From IMG/VR virus record IMGVR_UViG_3300045015_000053: a stretch of DNA of 64,000 bases, one strand, 5' to 3'. The stretch's first letter is position 1. Every line of letters starts with the position of its first letter. The position numbers were made by a program, and so were the translations under genes. Under the pieces are notes generated by a model. It saw only the letters and a program-made list of their open reading frames with translations. It searched no databases and was not told where the DNA came from. The DNA comes from a virus (Duplodnaviria > Caudoviricetes). Below are positions 39,770 to 60,355 of the stretch, piece after piece.

Positions 39770-41479
39770 ATGGCACTTTCCACCAACATCTTCGACGCGA
39801 AGTGCAGCCGTTGTCCGACCACGTTCGGTGCGAAGCAAGGCTTCTACGAGAAGACCCAGAACGGGATTGTCTTCTACTGCAAGAACTGCGCTGCCAAAGT
39901 CGGCGAAAGCCCGGCTTCCGTTCCGGTCAACAACACCCGGCGGCTGACCGCCAACTTCGAGATTTTTACCCCGAAGGAACCGGACAACCTGCCCATCATC
40001 CGTGCGTTCCCCGGCGCTCGCTGGACCGGCCAGTGCTGGTCCGTTAGCCGCGAAGAGGGGGACCGCGTCCGCGTTCTCGAACTTGCCGACCGCCTCGGCC
40101 TTCAGGTCGATCCGAGCCTCCGCACCATCAAGTTGTGCGGGCGGGCCGAGGCCGCTAAGACGCGCGGGCTGTACCCGTTCCAAGTCGAGGGCGTCGATTT
40201 CGTCAGCAAGAAGGCTCACGCCCTTCTCGGCGATCAGATGGGACTCGGCAAGACCGCCCAGTCGCTCATGTCGTTGGAAGAAAGCGACCGCGTTCTGGCG
40301 GTGGTTCCCGCGAGCCTCAAGAACAACTGGCGGGCCGAAATCCTGCTGTGGCGTCCAGAGTTCAAGATCAAGATCATCAAGAAGAAAACCGACTTCGTTC
40401 TGCCGGTCGCGGGCGAAATCGTCATCATCAACCGCGAATTGCTCCCCGACTACCTTACTCCCGTCAAGGTCGAGGGCGAGAAGTACCCCGTTGCCAAATG
40501 GCCCGAAGGGGTTCGGCAGTACGTCGGCGAGATTCTTGTCATTGTTGACGAGGCTCACAAGTACAAGAACTGGCAGGCCAAGTGCAGCAAGAAGATGGGG
40601 CAGTTGAGCCGCGCGGCCCGAAAGGTTATCGCGTTGACCGGCACCCCGCTGCTCAACAAGCCGGGCGACCTGTTCGGCGTCCTGTCGAGCGTCGGCATGG
40701 TGGGCGAAGTGTTCGGGACGTGGAACCGCTTCAAGGAACTGTTCAACGCCCAAGACGGCCAGTACGGACTCGAATGGGGCATGCCCAGTCCCGAAGTGCC
40801 GGAACGTCTCCGTCGCGTCATGCTCGCCCGCCGCCGCGAAGAGGTGCTTCCGAACCTCCCGCGCAAGCAATACGTCGATCTGCCGGTGGACAACACCAAG
40901 TCCATCGACAAGCAGTTGGACGCACTGGACAAGGTCCACGGCAAGTTGTCCCGCGAAGGCGGCAGGCTGCCGCCGTTCCAAGACTTCAGCCGCATCCGCG
41001 CCGAGATCGCCGAGGCCCGGATTCCCGAAATGCTGGAGTTCGTGGAGAACTGCGAGGAACAGGAAGAACAGCTTGTGGTGTTCTCCTACCACCTCGCACC
41101 GCTGGATCAGTTGGCGATGCGTGAAGGGTGGGCGGTCATCAGCGGCGATACGCCGCTCGATCAGCGGCAGCAGATCGTGGACGCCTTCCAGCAGGGACAC
41201 TTGAAGGGCGTCGGGCTGACGATTCAGGCCGGTGGCGTGGGTCTTACCCTCACGGCCGCGAACAAGATGCTGTTCGTGGACATGGACTGGGTTCCGGCGA
41301 ACAACTGGCAGGCAGAAGACCGCATCTGCCGTATCGGGCAGGAAGCTGACAAGGTGACGATCTATCGGATGGTCAGCAACCACCCGCTCGACCGTCACGT
41401 TCACACCCTGCTCGCCACCAAGATCGCTTTGATCGAGGCGGCGACGTTACAGCAAGCCAAAGCGGTATTGCCCACATGA
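39770..41479 (+). CDS. SNF2/HARP(SMARCAL1)-like helicase with N-terminal Zn finger
   Basis: LGDQMGLGKT; IVDEAH; LTGTP; AGGVGLTLT; QAEDRICRIGQ. Confidence 0.9.
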   Translation: MALSTNIFDAKCSRCPTTFGAKQGFYEKTQNGIVFYCKNCAAKVGESPASVPVNNTRRLTANFEIFTPKEPDNLPIIRAFPGARWTGQCWSVSREEGDRVRVLELADRLGLQVDPSLRTIKLCGRAEAAKTRGLYPFQVEGVDFVSKKAHALLGDQMGLGKTAQSLMSLEESDRVLAVVPASLKNNWRAEILLWRPEFKIKIIKKKTDFVLPVAGEIVIINRELLPDYLTPVKVEGEKYPVAKWPEGVRQYVGEILVIVDEAHKYKNWQAKCSKKMGQLSRAARKVIALTGTPLLNKPGDLFGVLSSVGMVGEVFGTWNRFKELFNAQDGQYGLEWGMPSPEVPERLRRVMLARRREEVLPNLPRKQYVDLPVDNTKSIDKQLDALDKVHGKLSREGGRLPPFQDFSRIRAEIAEARIPEMLEFVENCEEQEEQLVVFSYHLAPLDQLAMREGWAVISGDTPLDQRQQIVDAFQQGHLKGVGLTIQAGGVGLTLTAANKMLFVDMDWVPANNWQAEDRICRIGQEADKVTIYRMVSNHPLDRHVHTLLATKIALIEAATLQQAKAVLPT

Positions 41480-51496: not shown

Positions 51497-52972
51497 GTGA
51501 AGAACTTCAACGTGGCAACAGATTCCTTGTTCTTTGTCGCCGAGGGCGATCAAGAAAAGCTCGTTTCTGCTCTCGACATCGAGAAGAACGGCAAGAAGTA
51601 TTCACAGTTTCTTGGCTCGCCAATGCAACAGGCGACCTACATGAACGCCATCGTCGCCATCCTCAGCGATTTGAAGGCCAATGGGAACACGTCCCAATAC
51701 GACATGTCCACCTTCATGCAGCAGCCCGACTTGTCAACCAAGTACAACATCTACTTCCCGTGGAAAACGCTCGCGAAAAACGATGTGCATCGCGAGATCG
51801 GCTATTGCAGTTCACGGATTCCTGTAGGCCAAAACGAAGCGTATCGTTTTAACCCGCACCCACAAGCTTTTGAGTACGAGCTTTGCCAACGATGCTGCGC
51901 ATATGGTTTTTTGGAAAACATCCTGTTTGCCCGTAGTGGTGGGCAAGGATGGAGTCCTGCTTTGGCCGGTGAAAACCCCCTGTATGTCTGGAAGACCGGG
52001 GAGAACCTCGCCGACTTCATTCAACTGAACAGCGGCCAGCCTGAAAAGGCCGGGTGGGACGTTCTGAAAACCCTCGGTACTCCAGAATCTCCCAACTTGC
52101 TAACGCGCAATCAAACATACACATACAACCCAAGACTGATGGAATGTGTGTGGAAGGCACCGCTACAACCTTGCTTTTTGTGCGGCGACTGTGAAATGCC
52201 TCATGGCAGTGAAATGTATTCTCGTGGGATCAATACGAAGTTTACCAAAGAGTCACTTTTGAAAGGCTTTCAGAAGAAATGGCACGGGTTCAAACCGACC
52301 GAGAAGGAACATTTCTTAATTGTCCCGTGCGAAGATGATAGGAAACTTGTGCGTAAAGACGGCAAACGCATGATCGCTACGGCAGACAACAAAACTATTG
52401 CCGAAGCCGCCTACGCTCAATTTGGTGACAAATGGATCGCAATCGGAATGATGGTTGAAAGTGTTAAGAAGTCCTCGATTTTCGAGCAGTATCTCGTGAC
52501 CCCTGACACTTGCCCGCAGCGAAGGAAACAGCCCCCGCACAAAAACTTCAAGAAGAGGCTTGACGGCTCAAGGCCCAAAGTCGTTGTTCCAAAACCGATC
52601 ATCTCTACAGCGGAGGTAAGCCGCGAGATGATCGCAAAGGCCGTCGCATGCCTGAGCGAGATCCCCCAAGAAAAGCTCGCAATGTTACGCAACGCCTGTT
52701 ACGGCGCGAGGCATGAAAGCGATGCCGAGGTGTTGGATTTTCTGGACGGTCTTTGGCGGAAGGTTTACCAGAAGACCCGACTGACTTTCAAGAGGGTCTT
52801 TTTTCAACTGGTTCTCGCCTACGCCTGCAACCCGCGCAGTCGCAAGAGCGGTTACCTTGCTAAACATTTGGCTCGCAACGTTCAGCTATTGGCACAATCG
52901 CCCTGTTCTGCCGTTGTGTTCGGCGAAGTCGATTGGTACTGTGTTTTCTCAACCATGTGTGGAGTGAAGTAA
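51497..52972 (+). CDS. cas8e: type I-E large subunit Cas8e(Cse1)-like with probable C-terminal Cas11(Cse2) fusion
   Basis: first gene of cas7-cas5-cas6 operon, FNVATDSLF start; C-terminus LAMLRNA..LVLAYACNP..LARNVQLL..EVDW resembles Cse2. Confidence 0.6.
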   Translation: MKNFNVATDSLFFVAEGDQEKLVSALDIEKNGKKYSQFLGSPMQQATYMNAIVAILSDLKANGNTSQYDMSTFMQQPDLSTKYNIYFPWKTLAKNDVHREIGYCSSRIPVGQNEAYRFNPHPQAFEYELCQRCCAYGFLENILFARSGGQGWSPALAGENPLYVWKTGENLADFIQLNSGQPEKAGWDVLKTLGTPESPNLLTRNQTYTYNPRLMECVWKAPLQPCFLCGDCEMPHGSEMYSRGINTKFTKESLLKGFQKKWHGFKPTEKEHFLIVPCEDDRKLVRKDGKRMIATADNKTIAEAAYAQFGDKWIAIGMMVESVKKSSIFEQYLVTPDTCPQRRKQPPHKNFKKRLDGSRPKVVVPKPIISTAEVSREMIAKAVACLSEIPQEKLAMLRNACYGARHESDAEVLDFLDGLWRKVYQKTRLTFKRVFFQLVLAYACNPRSRKSGYLAKHLARNVQLLAQSPCSAVVFGEVDWYCVFSTMCGVK

Positions 52973-52973
52973 A

Positions 52974-54485
52974 ATGGCTACGCTCAGAAATGTGTTCCTC
53001 GGCATGTCGCAAATTACGCACTACGGTGCGGGACTTCCGAATCGCGACAAGAGCGGTGTGTACAAACATATCCCCGTGGGCAACGTGGATCGCGGGATGG
53101 TGTCGCCACAGTGCCGCCGTCAGCACGTTCGTGAAGAGATCGTCAAGCGTATGCCGCACCTCGAACTTTCCGACCAGACGCGGCACTACCCAGACATCCT
53201 CATCCCGATGTTGACAGACACGTCCGATAAATTCGGCGGCGTCGCGTTGACCGAATCGGAAGCAAATGTGGTCATGCAGTATTTCCGCACCCTGCTACAG
53301 AAGAAGACCCGCGAAACGAAAAACGGTCGTTCAAACGCCACCTACAAACATTGGCCGGACTCCATGCGACTGGTGGCTGCGGCATGTCGAAAAATCAAAG
53401 AGAATGGCGGGCAACAATGGTCCGACATTTCCACCCCGTCATCCACCATCGTCATCGAGAACATTCTCGCCGATCTGGGGCTTGAGAAACAGGACAAAAA
53501 CGATGACGATGATGATGACAAGAAAGATCCCGAACTGGAAGCCACTCGCAACCGAATCCTCAAAGAACTCCCCGGCCGCATGGAGGCCGCGAAGATCGGT
53601 TACGATCAAGGTAACGAATTGAAGGCACTCGTTATCGCCATCCGCGATAACGTGCCGCAAGAGCAGCCGGAACAAGCGGAGAAAATCGAGAAGCCCAACC
53701 AGAAGCCTCAAGCCGGTGGCAAGAGGGGTGCCAAGAAGACCGTCGAAACCAGCGGACTGGATGAAATTCGCGATAATTTCAAGAAAGCCTTGCTCGCAGA
53801 GACGAGCAAAATCAAGGGCAAGAAAATGCTTCGGCTTTCTGACTGGTGTGTGCCGCCATTCGACGTAGCCCTGTTCGGCAACATGCCCAACGAGAACCTC
53901 CACCGGCAGGTTACGCCCGCCATGAACAACACGGCGGCTATCTCAGTCAACCCGTTGGCCCCGGTCACCGTTTTCAATACCATCGTTGATACCAAACGGC
54001 CGGAATCGAACATGGTGCCGGATCAGAGCTACATGTACGACGCCGTTATGTACTCGTTCGACATGCTTGACTCCAACCAGTTGTTCCAGAACATGGAGCG
54101 AGAGGCCACGGTCGCAGAAGTCGAAGCACTGATCGCGTCGTTCATCGAGTCACTGCCCGGTGCCAAACGCGGCACCTCGGCGATCAATTCGCCGCCGATT
54201 CTCGTATCAATCGTGCTGTCGGAGTACAACCAACTGTGTTGCGAACGCGCCTTCGTAGAGGCAATCAATACGCAAACGGATGATGTTTCACGCATCGCCA
54301 CCGAACGGCTGTACGGTTTCATGCAGAAGAACCAAGAACAGTGGGAACCTCTCGATACGTTCGTCTACTCGGTCGATCCCGTACCAGAGAAACTCAAAGC
54401 CCGAACCTACCGCAACACGCGGAAGTTCGCGCGAGCCGTCGCCGAACGCTACGTTGAACTGCGTTGTAGCGTGACCAAGAAGTAA
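52974..54485 (+). CDS. cas7: type I-E Cas7 (Cse4/CasC) with large insertion
   Basis: LPNRDKSGVYK..G..RGMVSPQCRR..RE; DVALFGNM; AISVN; DAVMY; LPGAKRGTSA. Confidence 0.8.
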   Translation: MATLRNVFLGMSQITHYGAGLPNRDKSGVYKHIPVGNVDRGMVSPQCRRQHVREEIVKRMPHLELSDQTRHYPDILIPMLTDTSDKFGGVALTESEANVVMQYFRTLLQKKTRETKNGRSNATYKHWPDSMRLVAAACRKIKENGGQQWSDISTPSSTIVIENILADLGLEKQDKNDDDDDDKKDPELEATRNRILKELPGRMEAAKIGYDQGNELKALVIAIRDNVPQEQPEQAEKIEKPNQKPQAGGKRGAKKTVETSGLDEIRDNFKKALLAETSKIKGKKMLRLSDWCVPPFDVALFGNMPNENLHRQVTPAMNNTAAISVNPLAPVTVFNTIVDTKRPESNMVPDQSYMYDAVMYSFDMLDSNQLFQNMEREATVAEVEALIASFIESLPGAKRGTSAINSPPILVSIVLSEYNQLCCERAFVEAINTQTDDVSRIATERLYGFMQKNQEQWEPLDTFVYSVDPVPEKLKARTYRNTRKFARAVAERYVELRCSVTKK

Positions 54486-54538: not shown

Positions 54539-55597
54539 ATGAGCGTCATCAAACTGTTTTTGGCCGGCTCACGACAGTGTTACGGACTCGAAAATATCGG
54601 CCAAACCAAGCCGTGGCCGACCAAAAGCGCCGTCGCTGGCATCGTGGCAAATGCGCTCGGCCTCGACTACAAAGACACGACCGAATTCCTCAAAGATTTC
54701 AATAAGACCAAAGTACACGTTCGCGTGGACTCTCCCGGTTCTATCTGCGAAGACTTCCAAGTCGCCACCGGGTTTGGTGATGCAAACGGCCGCGCCCGCA
54801 CAATGAAGGAAAAGGTTGCTTACGTCGATAACGGGGTCGTTAAAGAATATAACGCCCCGAAAAAAACCATGTTTACACCCACATACCTCTGCGATGCGAG
54901 GTTCATGGTTTTTATCGAAGGCCGACGCGAGGTTCTCGAAACTTGGGTCGCCGATCTCGAACGGCCCAAACGTCCCCTTTATCTCGGACGGTCGTCATGC
55001 CTCCCAAGTGAAAACATCTTCGTGTCCCACGAGGACCGAGACATTCAGGAACTGATCGAGAACAGTGTACTCGAACTACTGCCGGGAACCAAATACGAGG
55101 GTCAAAAAACACTCAATACGATCATGGAAGTCCAGAGTGGCGGGTACTTCATCCGAGATGTCGTTCTTACGTTCAAACCGAGCCACACACACGGTTCACG
55201 AATGGTTGTTCAAAAGCCAGTGGTCGTGAAAAATGTTGTCCCGTGGCTGCAAGGCGTGGGCCTTTCCGGGCGAAGAAATCGTCCGAGTAAAAAGGCACGC
55301 GATGAACGCCTTTCATATGACAACAATCGTTGCGTCGAGTGCGGGGCAGTCAAGGACGTGCAATATCACCACGTCACATACGAGAACTATGGGTGTGAAA
55401 AGCTCGAAGACGCCCGAACCCTCTGCGTCATTTGTCACCGCGCCTGCACGCTTCTCAACAGTCAATTCGGTCACTTTGATCCGAGGGAACTGCCAGAAGA
55501 AGATTACGAGGTCTACCGGAACGTGCGTGACCAGATCGCGGTAGAACATATGAGGATTTTGGAATCAAGAAAGCAACTGCCGAAGTTGCCCTACTGA
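54539..55597 (+). CDS. cas5: type I-E Cas5 fused to C-terminal HNH nuclease
   Basis: PTKSAVAGIVANALG; VRVDSPG..DFQ; YLCDARF; PLYLGRSSCLPS; then CVECG..YHHVTYE..E..D..TLCVICH. Confidence 0.9.
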   Translation: MSVIKLFLAGSRQCYGLENIGQTKPWPTKSAVAGIVANALGLDYKDTTEFLKDFNKTKVHVRVDSPGSICEDFQVATGFGDANGRARTMKEKVAYVDNGVVKEYNAPKKTMFTPTYLCDARFMVFIEGRREVLETWVADLERPKRPLYLGRSSCLPSENIFVSHEDRDIQELIENSVLELLPGTKYEGQKTLNTIMEVQSGGYFIRDVVLTFKPSHTHGSRMVVQKPVVVKNVVPWLQGVGLSGRRNRPSKKARDERLSYDNNRCVECGAVKDVQYHHVTYENYGCEKLEDARTLCVICHRACTLLNSQFGHFDPRELPEEDYEVYRNVRDQIAVEHMRILESRKQLPKLPY

Positions 55598-55638: not shown

Positions 55639-56253
55639 ATGTATCGATGCTTCCTGAAGGTCAAACCCAGTGCCATGATGTCCAGACTGTACGACTGGCA
55701 CGGGTGGTATGGAATCATTCTCAACGGGTGGCAAGACACTAGGTTTCATCAACAGCCTCGGTCAGAAAATCGATCCATCCTGTACCGGGTCGAGAACGAA
55801 CAGATTGTCGTTCAAAGTACAGAACGGCCAGATCAGCCAATCCGCGCACCAGAGATCGCCAGTTGTGTGATCGAGGAGTATAACCCGAAACCATTCGGGA
55901 AGACCAACATCGAAGTGGTCATGGCCGTTTACACGCGGGGCAAGCGGACCAAAGGCGTTGCGCCGCCCGGAGTCAGAAAGAACCCCACTGCCGGACTATA
56001 CCTGCCACTCGAAAAGCGACAGTTCTTCCTCCGCAAAATGCAAGACAACGGGTTCGTCGGCGACATCATTTCGCTATCGGTCGGCCAGACGTTTTCGTTC
56101 TCTTCACCTCACGGTCAAAGTAGAATTGAACTGCCGGTGGCAAACTTCAAAGCCACAGTGGACATCAAGGACACTAACGCCTTCCTCGACATGATGAAAC
56201 GAGGCGTCAGCCGCAACAAAGATTCTGGCTGTGGACTTATCGTTCTGCGATAA
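55639..56253 (+). CDS. cas6e: type I-E Cas6e (Cse3)
   Basis: ILYRVE..IVVQS..PD; C-terminal G-rich loop GVSRNKDSGCGLIVL. Confidence 0.8.
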   Translation: MYRCFLKVKPSAMMSRLYDWHGWYGIILNGWQDTRFHQQPRSENRSILYRVENEQIVVQSTERPDQPIRAPEIASCVIEEYNPKPFGKTNIEVVMAVYTRGKRTKGVAPPGVRKNPTAGLYLPLEKRQFFLRKMQDNGFVGDIISLSVGQTFSFSSPHGQSRIELPVANFKATVDIKDTNAFLDMMKRGVSRNKDSGCGLIVLR

Positions 56254-56309: not shown

Positions 56310-56363
56310 ACAATTACGCCACGCGAGCTACGCACAAGGCAACCCCTCGCGTGGCGTAATTGT
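56310..56363. promoter_or_regulatory. 18-bp perfect inverted repeat in CRISPR leader
   Basis: ACAATTACGCCACGCGAG-N18-CTCGCGTGGCGTAATTGT. Confidence 0.8.
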
Positions 56364-56397: not shown

Positions 56398-57294
56398 CTC
56401 AAACCCTCAATCCCATTCATTGGGAGTTGTCATCTTACCAAGCTCGATGTTCAAGTGACGCCCGCAGACCTCAAACCCTCAATCCCATTCATTGGGAGTT
56501 GTCATAATTGCTCTTTGAGACGCAGCAACTTCGAGACTTCCGACTCAAACCCTCAATCCCATTCATTGGGAGTTGTCATGGCGAGCGGCTGCTTCGGGTG
56601 ATCCAGAAGAAAGAACTCAAACCCTCAATCCCATTCATTGGGAGTTGTCATCCGATCTTCATGGGCAACCTTCAGGAAGGCACAACCCCGCCTCAAACCC
56701 TCAATCCCATTCATTGGGAGTTGTCATCGCTCGGTGCTGGTCTGCGAGTCGGACGGTGAATGCTCAAACCCTCAATCCCATTCATTGGGAGTTGTCATAC
56801 GAAGGACGGCAAAGGGAAACTTGGCATGGTCCGGCTCAAACCCTCAATCCCATTCATTGGGAGTTGTCATCTCTGGGTTCTGGTCCGGCGGCAGCAGCTT
56901 CTTCATCAAACCCTCAATCCCATTCATTGGGAGTTGTCATCCGTACCCGACCGCTTTGGAAACAAGAATGCCCGCCTTAATCCCTCAATCCCATTCATTG
57001 GGAGTCGTCATAGCAGCTCAGTGTCGATGGTCGCGAGTTGCGAGTCCGCTCAAGTCCCAATCCCATCTTTTGGGAGTTGTCATCTGGGAGCCGCAAGCCG
57101 ATGGGTAGAAGACCAGCAATTTTTGTAACTAATCCCATTTCGTTCGGAGTCGTCATAAGACCGACAGATGGGCAGCATGACTGGCTGCAAATTCAATCCC
57201 ATTTTTTTGTTGGGAGTTGTCATGACGGGTTCGATGGCCTGGATTGCGCTGATGGCACACTTCTCAAACTCGTCCCATTCATTGGGAGCTACCT
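56398..57294 (+). CRISPR. CRISPR array 1: 13 repeats (36 nt), 12 spacers
   Basis: CTCAAACCCTCAATCCCATTCATTGGGAGTTGTCAT at 56398, 56470, 56544, 56616, 56692, 56763, 56835, 56905; degenerate copies at 56976, 57049, 57121, ~57187, 57263; first ten spacers 34-40 nt. Confidence 0.97.
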
Positions 57295-57921
57295 GACTAA
57301 CTCAATCACCTTCGGCGGCACCTTTTCCGAAACGTAATAGGACGGCCACCTGCTGTCCTCCGAACCACGCCCGTCATTCTGCAACTTGTCTTCCAACACC
57401 GACCGCTTCACCTTCAACACCACCACCGGCGACGGCCGATCCGAATTGTGTTCCTCATGTTCCTCCACCCTCTGCTTCCAGAACTTCACCCCGCCCTTCT
57501 CGGCAAAAAACACCTTGCCCGAACTGTAGTCCGAGTAGTTCGTAAACTGCTTGACTGCCGTAGGAGACAACCCGTTCTTGCGAATCAGCGGCAACCGCGA
57601 TTTCGTCGTAACGTGGTAAAGGTAATCGTCCTTACCTTCCTTCTGAATGGCCTCGCGGTCCAACCTAGCGGCCAATTTCTCGTGATCGACGTTCCTGTAA
57701 CGCTTCGCCAGTTCGCGGTAAACGAACGCGGCGTAACCCTCGGACACGCCGAGCTTTTTGCCAATCTCCGCAATCGACAAACGACCCGTCGCAGCCAGTT
57801 GCTGCATCGCCCACGGCTTGATGGAAGGCTCAATCGAGGTGTACCACGCTTCCCACGCCTCCCACGGGTCGCCGGCAGAAGGCGGAACACTCATTTCTAG
57901 CCACAGTTTGAAAGTCGTCAT
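57289..57921 (-). CDS. ADP-ribosyltransferase-fold (KptA/Tpt1-like) protein
   Basis: YLYHVTTKSRLPLIRKNGLSP; KVFFA; VVVLKV; YYVSEKVPP; starts MTTFKLWLE. Confidence 0.55.
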   Translation of the reverse strand: MTTFKLWLEMSVPPSAGDPWEAWEAWYTSIEPSIKPWAMQQLAATGRLSIAEIGKKLGVSEGYAAFVYRELAKRYRNVDHEKLAARLDREAIQKEGKDDYLYHVTTKSRLPLIRKNGLSPTAVKQFTNYSDYSSGKVFFAEKGGVKFWKQRVEEHEEHNSDRPSPVVVLKVKRSVLEDKLQNDGRGSEDSRWPSYYVSEKVPPKVIELVR

Positions 57922-57936
57922 GACCCTATTTAGGGC

Positions 57937-57965
57937 TTGACGCACATCAACAAAAAGCCTAATCT
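57937..57965 (+). promoter_or_regulatory. sigma70-type promoter
   Basis: TTGACG-N17-TAATCT. Confidence 0.55.
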
Positions 57966-57999
57966 GACTTCCACACAGAACAACAAAAGGAATTCCGAC

Positions 58000-58552
58000 A
58001 TGAGCCGCTCCGTCATCTGCCGCTGCCGCCACGAAGACTGCGGGCAAGACACCTTCGTCGCACACATTGACGACAACCGCCTGCTGCCCCGAATGCGGAC
58101 GGCAACAGTCACCCGACGTACTCGGCGTCCCCAACGGCCTGTACAAGCACTACAAGGGCAACACCTACCGCGTCACCGGCTACGGTCTGCTCACCGACCC
58201 CGAAACGCGAGTGGTTTACTACCACAACATCGAGACGCCCGACCAACTGATGGCCCGGCCGACTACAATGTTCATCGAGAACGTCAACGGTCAGCCCCGG
58301 TTCCAATACATCGGCGGCGAAAGCCCCAACACGTTCCCCGCCCTCGTGAAAGCCGAACTGGAACGCGCCCGCAGACTGCATCCGGGCAACCAACGCTGCC
58401 TGCACGAAGCATACGGCGTTCTTCAGGAAGAAGTTGACGAGTTCTGGGATCTCGTCAAATTCAAGAAACCCGACCCCAAGAAGGTACTGGAAGAACTGGT
58501 TCAGGTCGCTGCTATGGCACAGAGAAGTGCCGAAGATCTGGAACTCACATGA
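58000..58552 (+). pseudogene. frameshifted Zn-ribbon + DUF1653 + MazG-like protein
   Basis: ATG 58000 CRCRHEDC frame; next frame CCPECG, GLYKHYKGNTY (DUF1653), EAYGVLQEEVDEFW..EELVQVAAMA (MazG-like). Confidence 0.6.
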
Positions 58553-58716
58553 GACGACACAACACGTTGCCCGACGATGAATTCGACTACTACCCGGAAG
58601 AGAAGCCCCCGCCGAGACAACCACAGTGGCTCGGCATCGTCGCCCTCGTCGCCCTGCTCGTGATCCTTGTGTTCGTCTTACACGATTCGGCCGTCAAACT
58701 CGGACTCGTCAAATGA
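58549..58716 (+). CDS. small single-TM protein
   Basis: ATGA overlap; WLGIVALVALLVILVFVL. Confidence 0.5.
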   Translation: MRRHNTLPDDEFDYYPEEKPPPRQPQWLGIVALVALLVILVFVLHDSAVKLGLVK

Positions 58717-59017
58717 AAAAGGCATTCAACGTGTTCGCCCAGTTGTTCCTCGCCACAAAACACCACACGGCAGCTACATGCCAGACTTTGAGTATCCTGA
58801 TCGTTTTGTGGAGGTGAAAAGCCCGTGGACACTTGCAATTTGCAAAGGCGAGAAACCAAGTAAAAACAACTTGTGTAGTGATGTGCAATGGCGTAAGATC
58901 CAGTACGTTAACGACCACTTCAAAACGGTTGAAGTGGTCGTACTATCCAAAGCGGAAGCCGCAAAGCTTTTCGCCAAAGCTCAAACGGGAGTCCTCCAAT
59001 TCGCTACGCCAGCATAG
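58667..59017 (+). CDS. PD-(D/E)xK nuclease-like domain, possibly fragment
   Basis: YMPDF...FVEVKSPW; no good start/RBS. Confidence 0.5.
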   Translation: MCSSYTIRPSNSDSSNEKGIQRVRPVVPRHKTPHGSYMPDFEYPDRFVEVKSPWTLAICKGEKPSKNNLCSDVQWRKIQYVNDHFKTVEVVVLSKAEAAKLFAKAQTGVLQFATPA

Positions 59018-59104
59018 TACCTCCCCGACCTCAAAACCTGCCTGCAACGCGCCGGGATCACCGAAACCAACGTCAAACTGAAGGGTTTCCATGAAGACGG
59101 CAGC

Positions 59105-60088
59105 AGACCAATGGCTTAGGCAGGTGCAGGCAAGGTTGTATGCGATTCGCTTACGGTCTGCAAGCTATCGGTCAAGACCAATGGCTTAGGCAGCAGTCAG
59201 CCTTGAGGACTACGAAAGAACGCATGTCTGCAAGCTATCGGTCAAGACCAATGGCTTAGGCAGATTCCGCTCATCTGGTTCCACTTGGGGTATATCGAAT
59301 CTGCGAGCTATCGGTTACGACCGATAGCTCAGGCAGGAGGGTTGGCGACGGCAGGCATCGGCGCTCTGCGTGCTATTGGTTACGACCAATCGCTCAGGCA
59401 GCCGTCCGTGTCTGGGATTGCGACGACGTGCAGCATCTGCGAGCTATTGCTTACGACCAATGGCTCAGGCAGTAGCTGATGCCGAGTTCATCGGCAACCT
59501 GCGAGTTATCGGCTAAGGCCAATGACTCAGGCAGGACGACTACCTCGATCTGACGCCACTTCTGCGAGTTATCGGCTAAGGCCAATCGCTCAGGCAGAAC
59601 CGCTGCCTCGTGTTGCCAATGATGACCGCGACCCTGCGTGCTATTGGTTACGACCAATCGCTCAGGCAGCCCCAGTCGAACAGGACGTTGGCGACGGCGT
59701 TCATCTGCGTGCTATTGGTTACGACCAATGGTTCAAGCAGATTCGGCAGCATTACGGATCTTTTCGATGAACCTGCGAGCTATCGGTCAAGACCAATGGC
59801 TCAGGCAGAACTATAAGCCCGTGTCGCCTGTCTGCGAACCATCTGCCACGGCTCATGGTTCAAGCAGGTTCAAGCAGGACATCCTGCTGTTCGACTCTCT
59901 GACCGCAAACGACTGCGAGCTATCGGCTAAGGCCAATCGCTCAGGCAGTGTTGGATGTATGCGAAGTCGCCGTTGCTCGCCTGCGGGCCATCGGTTGCGA
60001 CCAATGGCTCAAGCAGATCTTGAAGTTCGCGTCATTGCATTTGTTCTGATACCTGCGAGCCATCGGTTACGGCCAATGGCTCAAGCAG
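59105..60088. CRISPR. CRISPR-like array 2: 14 full + 1 partial 36-nt hairpin repeats, spacers 23-45 nt
   Basis: consensus CTGCGAGCTATCGGTTACGACCAATGGCTCAGGCAG at 59158, 59228, 59301, 59366, 59437, 59499, 59562, 59634, 59705, 59773, 59832, 59913, 59981, 60053; unique spacers. Confidence 0.85.
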
Positions 60089-60355
60089 AAGCACTACGTC
60101 GCACTCGCCACAGGCTCGCAACCTAAACACCCCGAACACCCGTAAAACGACAACGGCCAACCCGTCACCAGATCGTCACCACGACGCTCAAAAACCAACC
60201 CGGCATCTTCAACAGCTACCAAGAGGCCATCACAACACTCGCGCAATACGCACAACACGCTCCCCGATTCAAACTCGGCGACCAAACCGACTACGAACTC
60301 CACCTCAAAACGTTCACCGATAACTACAACTACGACAACTGAAAGGCACACAACC

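Follow-up and report, generated by a model that had tools for sequence, protein, structure and literature searches.

What kind of element is a series of hairpin-forming repeats that lies only 2 kb past a phage's own CRISPR system, and what might read it? The question is raised by a 64,000-nt stretch of DNA from a virus of the Caudoviricetes (IMG/VR record IMGVR_UViG_3300045015_000053), hereafter referred to as the window, which is the terminal part of a 401,933-bp contig assembled from a lake-water metagenome. The gene content of the element is that of a huge phage, and the same Cas5 protein has also been recorded on a 475,914-bp contig. In addition to the CRISPR system, which consists of a cas operon and its array (array 1), the window carries a second array (array 2) at positions 59106-60088 on the + strand. 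An earlier reading of the letters, referred to below as the original prediction, described array 2 as an orphan CRISPR-like array whose repeats vary in sequence while conserving a hairpin. Our analysis leads to the conclusion that array 2 is a real, unusual CRISPR-like RNA array of unproven function. More specifically, we consider it plausible, although short of probable, that array 2 is an orphan, non-acquiring CRISPR-type array with a hairpin under selection at the RNA level, read by a protein encoded elsewhere.

The location and repeat length originally predicted were borne out, as array 2 comprises 14 full direct repeats of 36 nt and one truncated copy. Sixteen of the 36 repeat columns are invariant, namely the first four, the last four, A10, T11, G19, C21, A24, T25, T29 and A31, and mean column identity is 89%. 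All 14 full repeats adopt a common fold, which is the architecture that had been predicted: the two ends pair over 4 bp (CUGC/GCAG), and this terminal helix is separated, by a 2-nt bulge on the 3' side, from a stem of 11 bp that is capped by a loop of 4 nt. The bulge consists of an invariant A followed by G or A. Folded singly, the repeats have a mean minimum free energy of -15.4 kcal/mol (n = 14); folding the entire array is uninformative because the palindromic repeats pair with one another.

For this structure, 91.7% of the cells are paired, and pairing falls to 15-40% when the partner is slid by 1-3 columns. Five of the 15 pairs (5-30, 7-28, 8-27, 12-23 and 15-20) are changed on both sides and yet still paired, and the observed covariation score was reached by none of 500 shuffles, a control that overstates independence because the 14 copies compared are paralogues of one locus. 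The compensatory changes singled out in the original prediction are all present: GGC/GCC, GAGT/ACTC at 59499, AAGC/GCTT at 59158 and 59228, and ATTGGT/ACCAAT. To our knowledge, compensatory variation within a single array is not a feature of described CRISPR arrays. No change is seen in the terminal helix, in the A of the bulge, in two of the A-U pairs or in the final base of the loop, while the middle of the stem varies but remains paired. A protein that recognizes the hairpin by its shape and by a few fixed bases would be expected to leave such a combination of fixed bases and a freely varying paired stem. Moreover, the asymmetric bulge is kept in all copies, and both a C12.A23 mismatch and a U.G wobble at 9-26 persist in most of them. 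These retained irregularities speak against mutation alone, in the form of template switching from one arm of a palindrome to the other, as the origin of the changes, since correction of this kind is expected to erase mismatches and wobbles. A covariance model of the repeat (R1) scored each copy at 52-62 bits (E about 1e-8) and revealed no further copy elsewhere in the 64-kb window or in the ~11 kb past it.

The individual copies illustrate how the variation is distributed. The truncated repeat 1 (59106-59123) is 18 nt long and contains the 3' half only, in which it does not differ from repeats 2 and 3. Repeats 2 (59158-59193) and 3 (59228-59263) are themselves identical, with a CAAG loop and a compensated A5-U30 pair, and the spacers on either side of repeat 3 are unrelated. 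Repeat 4 (59301-59336) forms a perfect 15-bp hairpin of -22.1 kcal/mol. The ATTGGT/ACCAAT variant is found in repeat 5 (59366-59401), which is identical to repeat 9 (59634-59669), and repeat 6 occupies 59437-59472. Repeat 7 (59499-59534) combines compensated U8-A27 and C15-G20 pairs with a UAAG loop; C15-G20 recurs in repeat 8 (59562-59597), together with a U8.G27 wobble, and in repeat 13 (59913-59948), together with a UAAG loop. A G7.U28 wobble and an AA bulge are present in repeat 10 (59705-59740), and a CAAG loop in repeat 11 (59773-59808). Repeat 14 (59981-60016) has a G6.U29 wobble, a UGCG loop and an AA bulge, and the last copy, repeat 15 (60053-60088), has a U15.G20 wobble and an AA bulge. 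The most diverged copy is repeat 12, which differs from most others at 10-13 positions and from repeat 15 at seven, and which still folds as a hairpin (A7-U28, C15-G20). Including a tandem duplication of its last 10-11 nt at 59868-59878, repeat 12 extends over 59832-59878.

The spacers measure, in order, 34, 34, 37, 29, 35, 26, 27, 36, 35, 32, 23, 45, 32 and 36 nt, with a mean of ~32 nt. They are thus of variable length, as noted originally, and the 45-nt spacer includes the duplication of the 3' end of repeat 12, attributable to slippage. All spacers are unique, save for a 12-mer common to spacers 4 and 9; 4 of 300 shuffles also gave one. Array 2 therefore falls within the generic definition of a CRISPR array, that is, at least three direct repeats of 23-55 nt separated by unique spacers of similar length. 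A coding repeat was ruled out, since the 59-81-nt periods are no multiples of three and the reading frame changes from unit to unit. A role of the spacers as antisense to start codons was dropped as well, the number of ATG triplets in the spacers being near chance.

Is array 2 then a second array for the phage's own CRISPR system? The operon of that system encodes a Cas8-like protein (51497-52972), Cas7 (52974-54485), Cas5 with a C-terminal HNH-like region (54539-55597) and Cas6e (55639-56253), and is followed on the + strand by array 1 (56398-57160), with regular 36-nt repeats and spacers of 34-40 nt. It corresponds to the published Cas5-HNH variant of type I-E, which is compact and Cas3-less (PMC11794572, PMC10910872), and lacks Cas1 and Cas2. 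The repeat of a relative encoding a Cas5-HNH protein with 44% identity (contig L009) ends in the 13-nt 3' motif of array 1, TGGGAGTTGTCAT, which identifies array 1, and not array 2, as the cognate array of the Cas8-Cas7-Cas5::HNH-Cas6e operon. Array 2 lacks TGGGAGTTGTCAT and has nothing in common with the repeat family of array 1, in agreement with the predicted unrelatedness of the two arrays. In the CRISPR RNA (crRNA) of type I-E and HNH-Cascade systems, a short stem-loop in the repeat is followed by a free 8-nt handle. The repeats of array 2 have no free 8-nt tag, as had been pointed out, their 3' end being paired. Lacking both the motif and a free handle, array 2 should be unable to serve the local Cascade. 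The contigs that encode the relatives of Cas5-HNH (44% and 35% identity) are short or carry no second array.

Array 1 differs from array 2 in its dynamics too. In another assembly of the same phage (Logan contig L002, compared with window positions 56506-56906), array 1 is shorter by 507 nt, corresponding to seven units, while the flanks of this length difference are 99.8-100% identical. Array 1 thus gains or loses units in nature, though no cas1 or cas2 gene is nearby. Array 2, on the other hand, is base-for-base identical in contigs of three samples, and fragments of it from runs of 2018 and 2019 differ just by a few low-depth single-base C>A or G>T calls. These low-depth differences, at window positions 59472, 59847, 59962 and 59978, may be sequencing damage rather than variants.

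With respect to the strand, all four one-sided changes that preserve pairing give G.U pairs on the + strand, where they would be A.C on the - strand, and all five loop variants (UACG, CAAG, UAAG, CACG and UGCG) fit the YNMG consensus on the + strand. The + strand also carries the genes nearest to array 2 on the upstream side (58067-59017) and every gene downstream of it, with no terminator-like site separating them from array 2. As weaker clues, these changes, loops and gene directions favour the + strand. Neighbouring repeats are more similar to each other than in random orders (P = 0.02). The identity of repeats 2 and 3, and the match of the 18 nt of truncated repeat 1 to both, in spite of unrelated spacers, would fit the trace left when a repeat is duplicated and new DNA inserted, the way CRISPR adaptation proceeds; gene conversion between adjacent repeats could imitate such a trace. 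As the most uniform copies lie on the left and the most decayed one, repeat 12, towards the right, the leader was probably on the left. The 88 nt in the leader position, between the upstream open reading frame (ORF) and truncated repeat 1 (59018-59105, + strand), are neither AT-rich nor promoter-like.

Known systems were considered for a repeat of this topology. Direct repeats of Cas13b systems are 36 nt long, with 4-bp paired ends around an interrupted hairpin and spacers of ~30 nt. Likeness to such class 2 repeats had been proposed, and the part of this proposal that concerns the paired ends is apt; yet the Cas-lambda scaffold fits the topology at least as well. Array 2 further differs from type VI-B in that its ends are CUGC/GCAG rather than GUUG/CAAC, in its variable spacer length and in the lack of a match to Rfam CRISPR-DR families. 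Guide order also separates the two systems, the repeat preceding the guide in Cas-lambda and following it in Cas13b. In the crRNA of Cas-lambda2, the ends of a 36-nt repeat form a 5-bp stem, which two adenines on the 3' side join to an inner stem-loop, and a ruler mechanism acting inside the spacer shortens the guide directly following the repeat to 16-18 nt (PMC12141684). With trimming of this kind, variable spacer length would be harmless. Like array 2, type V Cas-lambda (Cas12n) systems of huge phages are phage-borne, and both have repeats of 36 nt in which a terminal stem leads, through two purines at the junction on the 3' side, to an inner stem-loop. This likeness is one of topology alone, between 14 repeats and a published description, and is to be taken as resemblance and not as membership. 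The inner stem of array 2 has 11 bp and a tetraloop, compared with a distorted 6-bp stem and a U-rich loop in Cas-lambda; in addition, array 2 lacks the 3-nt 5' overhang, has different end sequences and is heterogeneous in its repeats.

Other phage-borne or repetitive elements share some of these features. RNA anti-CRISPRs (Racrs) and viral crRNA-like RNAs are, like array 2, phage-encoded, cas-less, repeat-derived hairpins able to occupy a Cas protein (PMC10651486; bioRxiv 10.1101/2024.10.29.618823). Racrs are, however, solitary or mini-array near-copies of a host repeat, often located right after a promoter, whereas array 2 consists of 14 diverged copies for which neither a match nor a promoter was found. 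The orphan or compact arrays of huge phages likewise have no cas1 or cas2, with the effector missing or supplied in trans. Ordinary phage arrays, in contrast to array 2, have near-identical repeats, while the variants of array 2 occur along its full length and are linked by compensatory stem changes. Repetitive extragenic palindromic (REP) sequences and bacterial interspersed mosaic elements are ~35-nt bulged imperfect palindromes between operon genes, whose stems also vary by compensatory change. REPs, however, are dispersed genome-wide, often in alternating orientation, and linked to a REP-associated tyrosine transposase, whereas the copies in array 2 lie at one locus and in one orientation, with no such transposase and no further copy found in ~75 kb. 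Finally, type III toxin-antitoxin RNAs of the ToxI kind are identical head-to-tail repeats without spacers, with a ToxN-like gene downstream; array 2 has unique spacers and no ToxN match downstream.

A cognate effector was looked for in and around the window. Apart from the local operon, no other cas gene was found, either in the window or in the ~11 kb following it; in the latter region, which was reached via overlapping contigs, no ORF exceeds 421 aa, and neither a Cas-like domain nor an extra copy of the hairpin was found. The predicted lack of a class 2 effector in the window thus held, and extends to the next ~11 kb. No Cas13b or HEPN protein is encoded near array 2, the large unassigned ORFs of the window gave no Cas12-like match in the PDB, and the largest + strand ORF of the window, of 569 aa, is an SNF2 helicase, leaving no ~740-aa RuvC effector near the array.

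Searches for relatives of the repeat were equally negative. A strict degenerate pattern gave no match in IMG/VR, in the reference genomes (one genome each of 185,579 prokaryote species) or in the JGI metagenomes. A pattern of two repeats restricted to the invariant columns gave none in IMG/VR and the metagenomes and three in the genomes, all unrelated; these belong to a His/Cys-rich coding repeat and a cyanobacterial repeat, without a match to the covariance model. A very loose pattern of ends plus bulge returned more than 119 matches in IMG/VR; the ten loci with a double match were checked, none of which was scored by the covariance model, and the one that was read (L059) is a coding tandem repeat. 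Rfam, including its CRISPR-DR families, gave no match at gathering or E-value thresholds. As judged from these sequence comparisons, the repeat family of array 2 is without relatives in the collections searched.

How do these results bear on the interpretation? Co-oriented palindromic repeats of 36 nt, unique spacers of ~32 nt and identical neighbours around unrelated spacers are most simply explained by a CRISPR-type array. For the orphan array outlined at the outset, we infer that it is transcribed, from which strand, that the RNA is processed and that a partner protein exists. Array 2 would be transcribed from left to right, together with the small operon ahead of it, which comprises a DUF1653 gene, a 55-aa gene and a nuclease remnant. 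In the RNA, each repeat would fold into a closed hairpin with a bulged invariant A plus purine, an 11-bp stem and a tetraloop, and the partner would recognize the shape of this hairpin and its few fixed bases. The local HNH-Cascade should not use array 2, the topology not being that of a Cas6/Cascade repeat. The likeliest role would be that of hairpin-tagged guide RNAs or hairpin decoys for an effector encoded elsewhere, be it by the phage, by the host or by a competing phage.

Several observations weigh against this interpretation. Whereas a generic CRISPR array has near-identical repeats along its length, with decay restricted to the trailer end, the repeats of array 2 differ pairwise at 0-13 of 36 positions and the variants are scattered along the whole array. 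Spacer length is loose, ranging from 23 to 37 nt apart from the single 45-nt spacer, and the repeat on the leader side is truncated. Upstream of array 2, neither a sigma-70-like site on the + strand nor a copy of the recurrent 13-mer of the phage, GGTCTATACTGAC, was detected; folding energy does not favour either strand (-15.4 versus -14.9 kcal/mol), and there is no RNA run among the runs listed for the locus. No spacer turnover was seen across the three samples and the 2018 and 2019 fragments. A second effector was found neither upstream of array 2, over 59 kb, nor downstream of it, over ~15 kb; Cas-lambda genes normally lie ~500 nt from their array, and no ~740-aa RuvC protein was found in this region. 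The designation of the hairpin as structure-selected rests on 14 related copies in a single locus. Moreover, no spacer target was found in cultured phages or in the window, a codon-degenerate version of spacer 9 had no target in the reference genomes or IMG/VR, and no contig pieces sharing only spacers were found in eight lake metagenomes. The spacers of array 1, which is presumably functional, have no target either, so that this negative result has little power. Together, the heterogeneity of the repeats, the loose spacers, the truncation at the leader end and the failure to see turnover indicate that array 2 is not acquiring spacers now.

With constraint on the hairpin only, loose spacer length and an array that stays static while array 1 turns over, array 2 could also be a multi-hairpin RNA rather than a guide store, acting as a decoy or sponge for a hairpin-binding protein or protecting an mRNA, with the spacers as linkers. 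We regard this as rather unlikely. A sponge of this kind could be directed at a Cas protein of the host or of a rival phage (as an RNA anti-CRISPR), at a toxin (as a pseudo-ToxI) or at another RNA-binding protein, and the location of array 2 within a co-directional transcription unit without terminator is in line with it, as is the use by phages of repeat-mimicking RNAs against CRISPR (PMC10651486; bioRxiv 10.1101/2024.10.29.618823). However, the RNA anti-CRISPRs known so far consist of single repeats or mini-arrays in close imitation of a host repeat that is itself known, and no repeat similar to that of array 2 exists in the 185,579 reference genomes, IMG/VR, the JGI metagenomes or the Rfam CRISPR-DR models. 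Furthermore, a sponge needs neither CRISPR-like spacing nor unrelated spacers between identical repeats.

The truncation of the first repeat, the failure to find a promoter, cas partner or turnover, the decay of repeat 12 with a slippage duplication and the shortest spacer alongside, and the degenerate mobile nuclease gene at the truncated end would all suit a dead relic, that is, an array that was acquired from a host or from a different phage, has lost its leader and effector and is decaying, its hairpin conservation dating from an active past. Such an origin appears quite unlikely to us, as none of the 14 copies has lost its fold, 16 of 36 columns remain invariant and the sequence is unchanged across samples and years, although the time span is short. 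Still more doubtful is an element acting at the level of DNA, in which the imperfect palindromes would be protein-binding, cruciform or single-strand sites for replication, packaging or recombination, and apparent compensation would arise by template switching between palindrome arms. The repeats are indeed palindromic and both strands fold equally well, a strong change in GC skew (a putative origin) lies 2-3 kb away, and an ORF with a nuclease domain adjoins the array. Yet the spacing of 59-81 bp is irregular, so that the sites are not phased; the fixed asymmetric bulge and the retained mismatch are unlike dimer sites or template-switch correction; the one-sided changes are all G.U on one strand; and the adjoining nuclease is a homing-endonuclease domain without a DNA-binding part.

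The orphan CRISPR-type array thus remains our preferred, albeit tentative, reading. It is unlikely, in our estimation, that array 2 is a working RNA device of an undescribed kind, cas-less and non-acquiring, with hairpins that co-evolve structurally for an unrecognised hairpin-binding effector and act as guides or as a multivalent decoy against an RNA-guided nuclease of a rival phage or the host. If so, within-array covariation would be a usable signature for finding such devices. If the hairpins are protein-bound, the locus is a sign of an RNA-guided effector, or of RNA decoys as a strategy, of a kind invisible to sequence-similarity searches. A repeat-spacer array can apparently persist with diverged repeats united by structure alone, and standard CRISPR finders penalise such arrays. 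The presence of a second, independent RNA array in a huge phage with a Cas3-less HNH-Cascade suggests layered RNA-based conflict between co-infecting elements. Were array 2 a relic, it would be a record of how phages gain and lose arrays.

Four genes lie between the two arrays. The product of the first (57289-58065, - strand) has a weak helix-turn-helix (HTH) match, and its C-terminal part weakly resembles the RNA 2'-phosphotransferase Tpt1/KptA (E = 0.17). It is followed on the + strand by the DUF1653 gene (58067-58552), a 55-aa membrane-like ORF and a PD...ExK ORF (58778-59017) that ends 88 nt before array 2 and encodes 79 aa, or 116 aa from a TTG at 58667. In an exhaustive search, the latter matched solely the C-terminal nuclease domain, of ~80 residues, of HTH/NUMOD3 proteins of 225-450 aa; coverage by Pfam is weak (RE_endonuc, E = 8e-4), and a single-sequence fold had a predicted local distance difference test (pLDDT) score of 35, too low for use. 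Judging by these matches, the ORF is probably a truncated homing-endonuclease-like gene and not a Cas protein. Its candidacy as the enzyme processing the array was rejected, its homologues being C-terminal domains of HTH/NUMOD3 homing-endonuclease-like proteins. On the 3' side, array 2 is followed by a C/A-rich stretch of 267 nt (60089-60355, + strand) with no canonical ORF and no terminator. Within it, an open frame of 71 codons (60127-60339, stop 60340-60342) is protein-like and has no ATG, GTG or TTG; it may be what is left of a gene or may begin at a non-canonical start. The downstream ORFs (143, 78 and 77 aa, and a methyltransferase) gave no match to Cas proteins, toxins or defence systems.

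Some further observations concern array 1 and its surroundings. Spacers 5 and 7 of array 1 are alike over ~15 of 21 nt at their 5' ends (window 56728-56904), for which Tandem Repeats Finder reports a 143-nt period; they may be two spacers to variants of one target. A perfect inverted repeat of ~18 bp (window 56310-56363), situated between the cas6e stop codon and the first repeat of array 1, could be a terminator, an attenuator or a regulatory hairpin of the leader. In the relative L009 (L009:483-7027), a 568-aa helicase of the SNF2 family is encoded directly upstream of cas8, and in the window the 569-aa SNF2 helicase (39770-41479) is encoded 10 kb upstream of cas8, so SNF2 helicases may be associated with the Cas3-less HNH-Cascade. 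Lastly, a tandem duplication of ~68 nt with a GC-rich hairpin is located just past the window (L001:19500-19640), near the end of the 401,933-bp contig, and may explain the break in the assembly.

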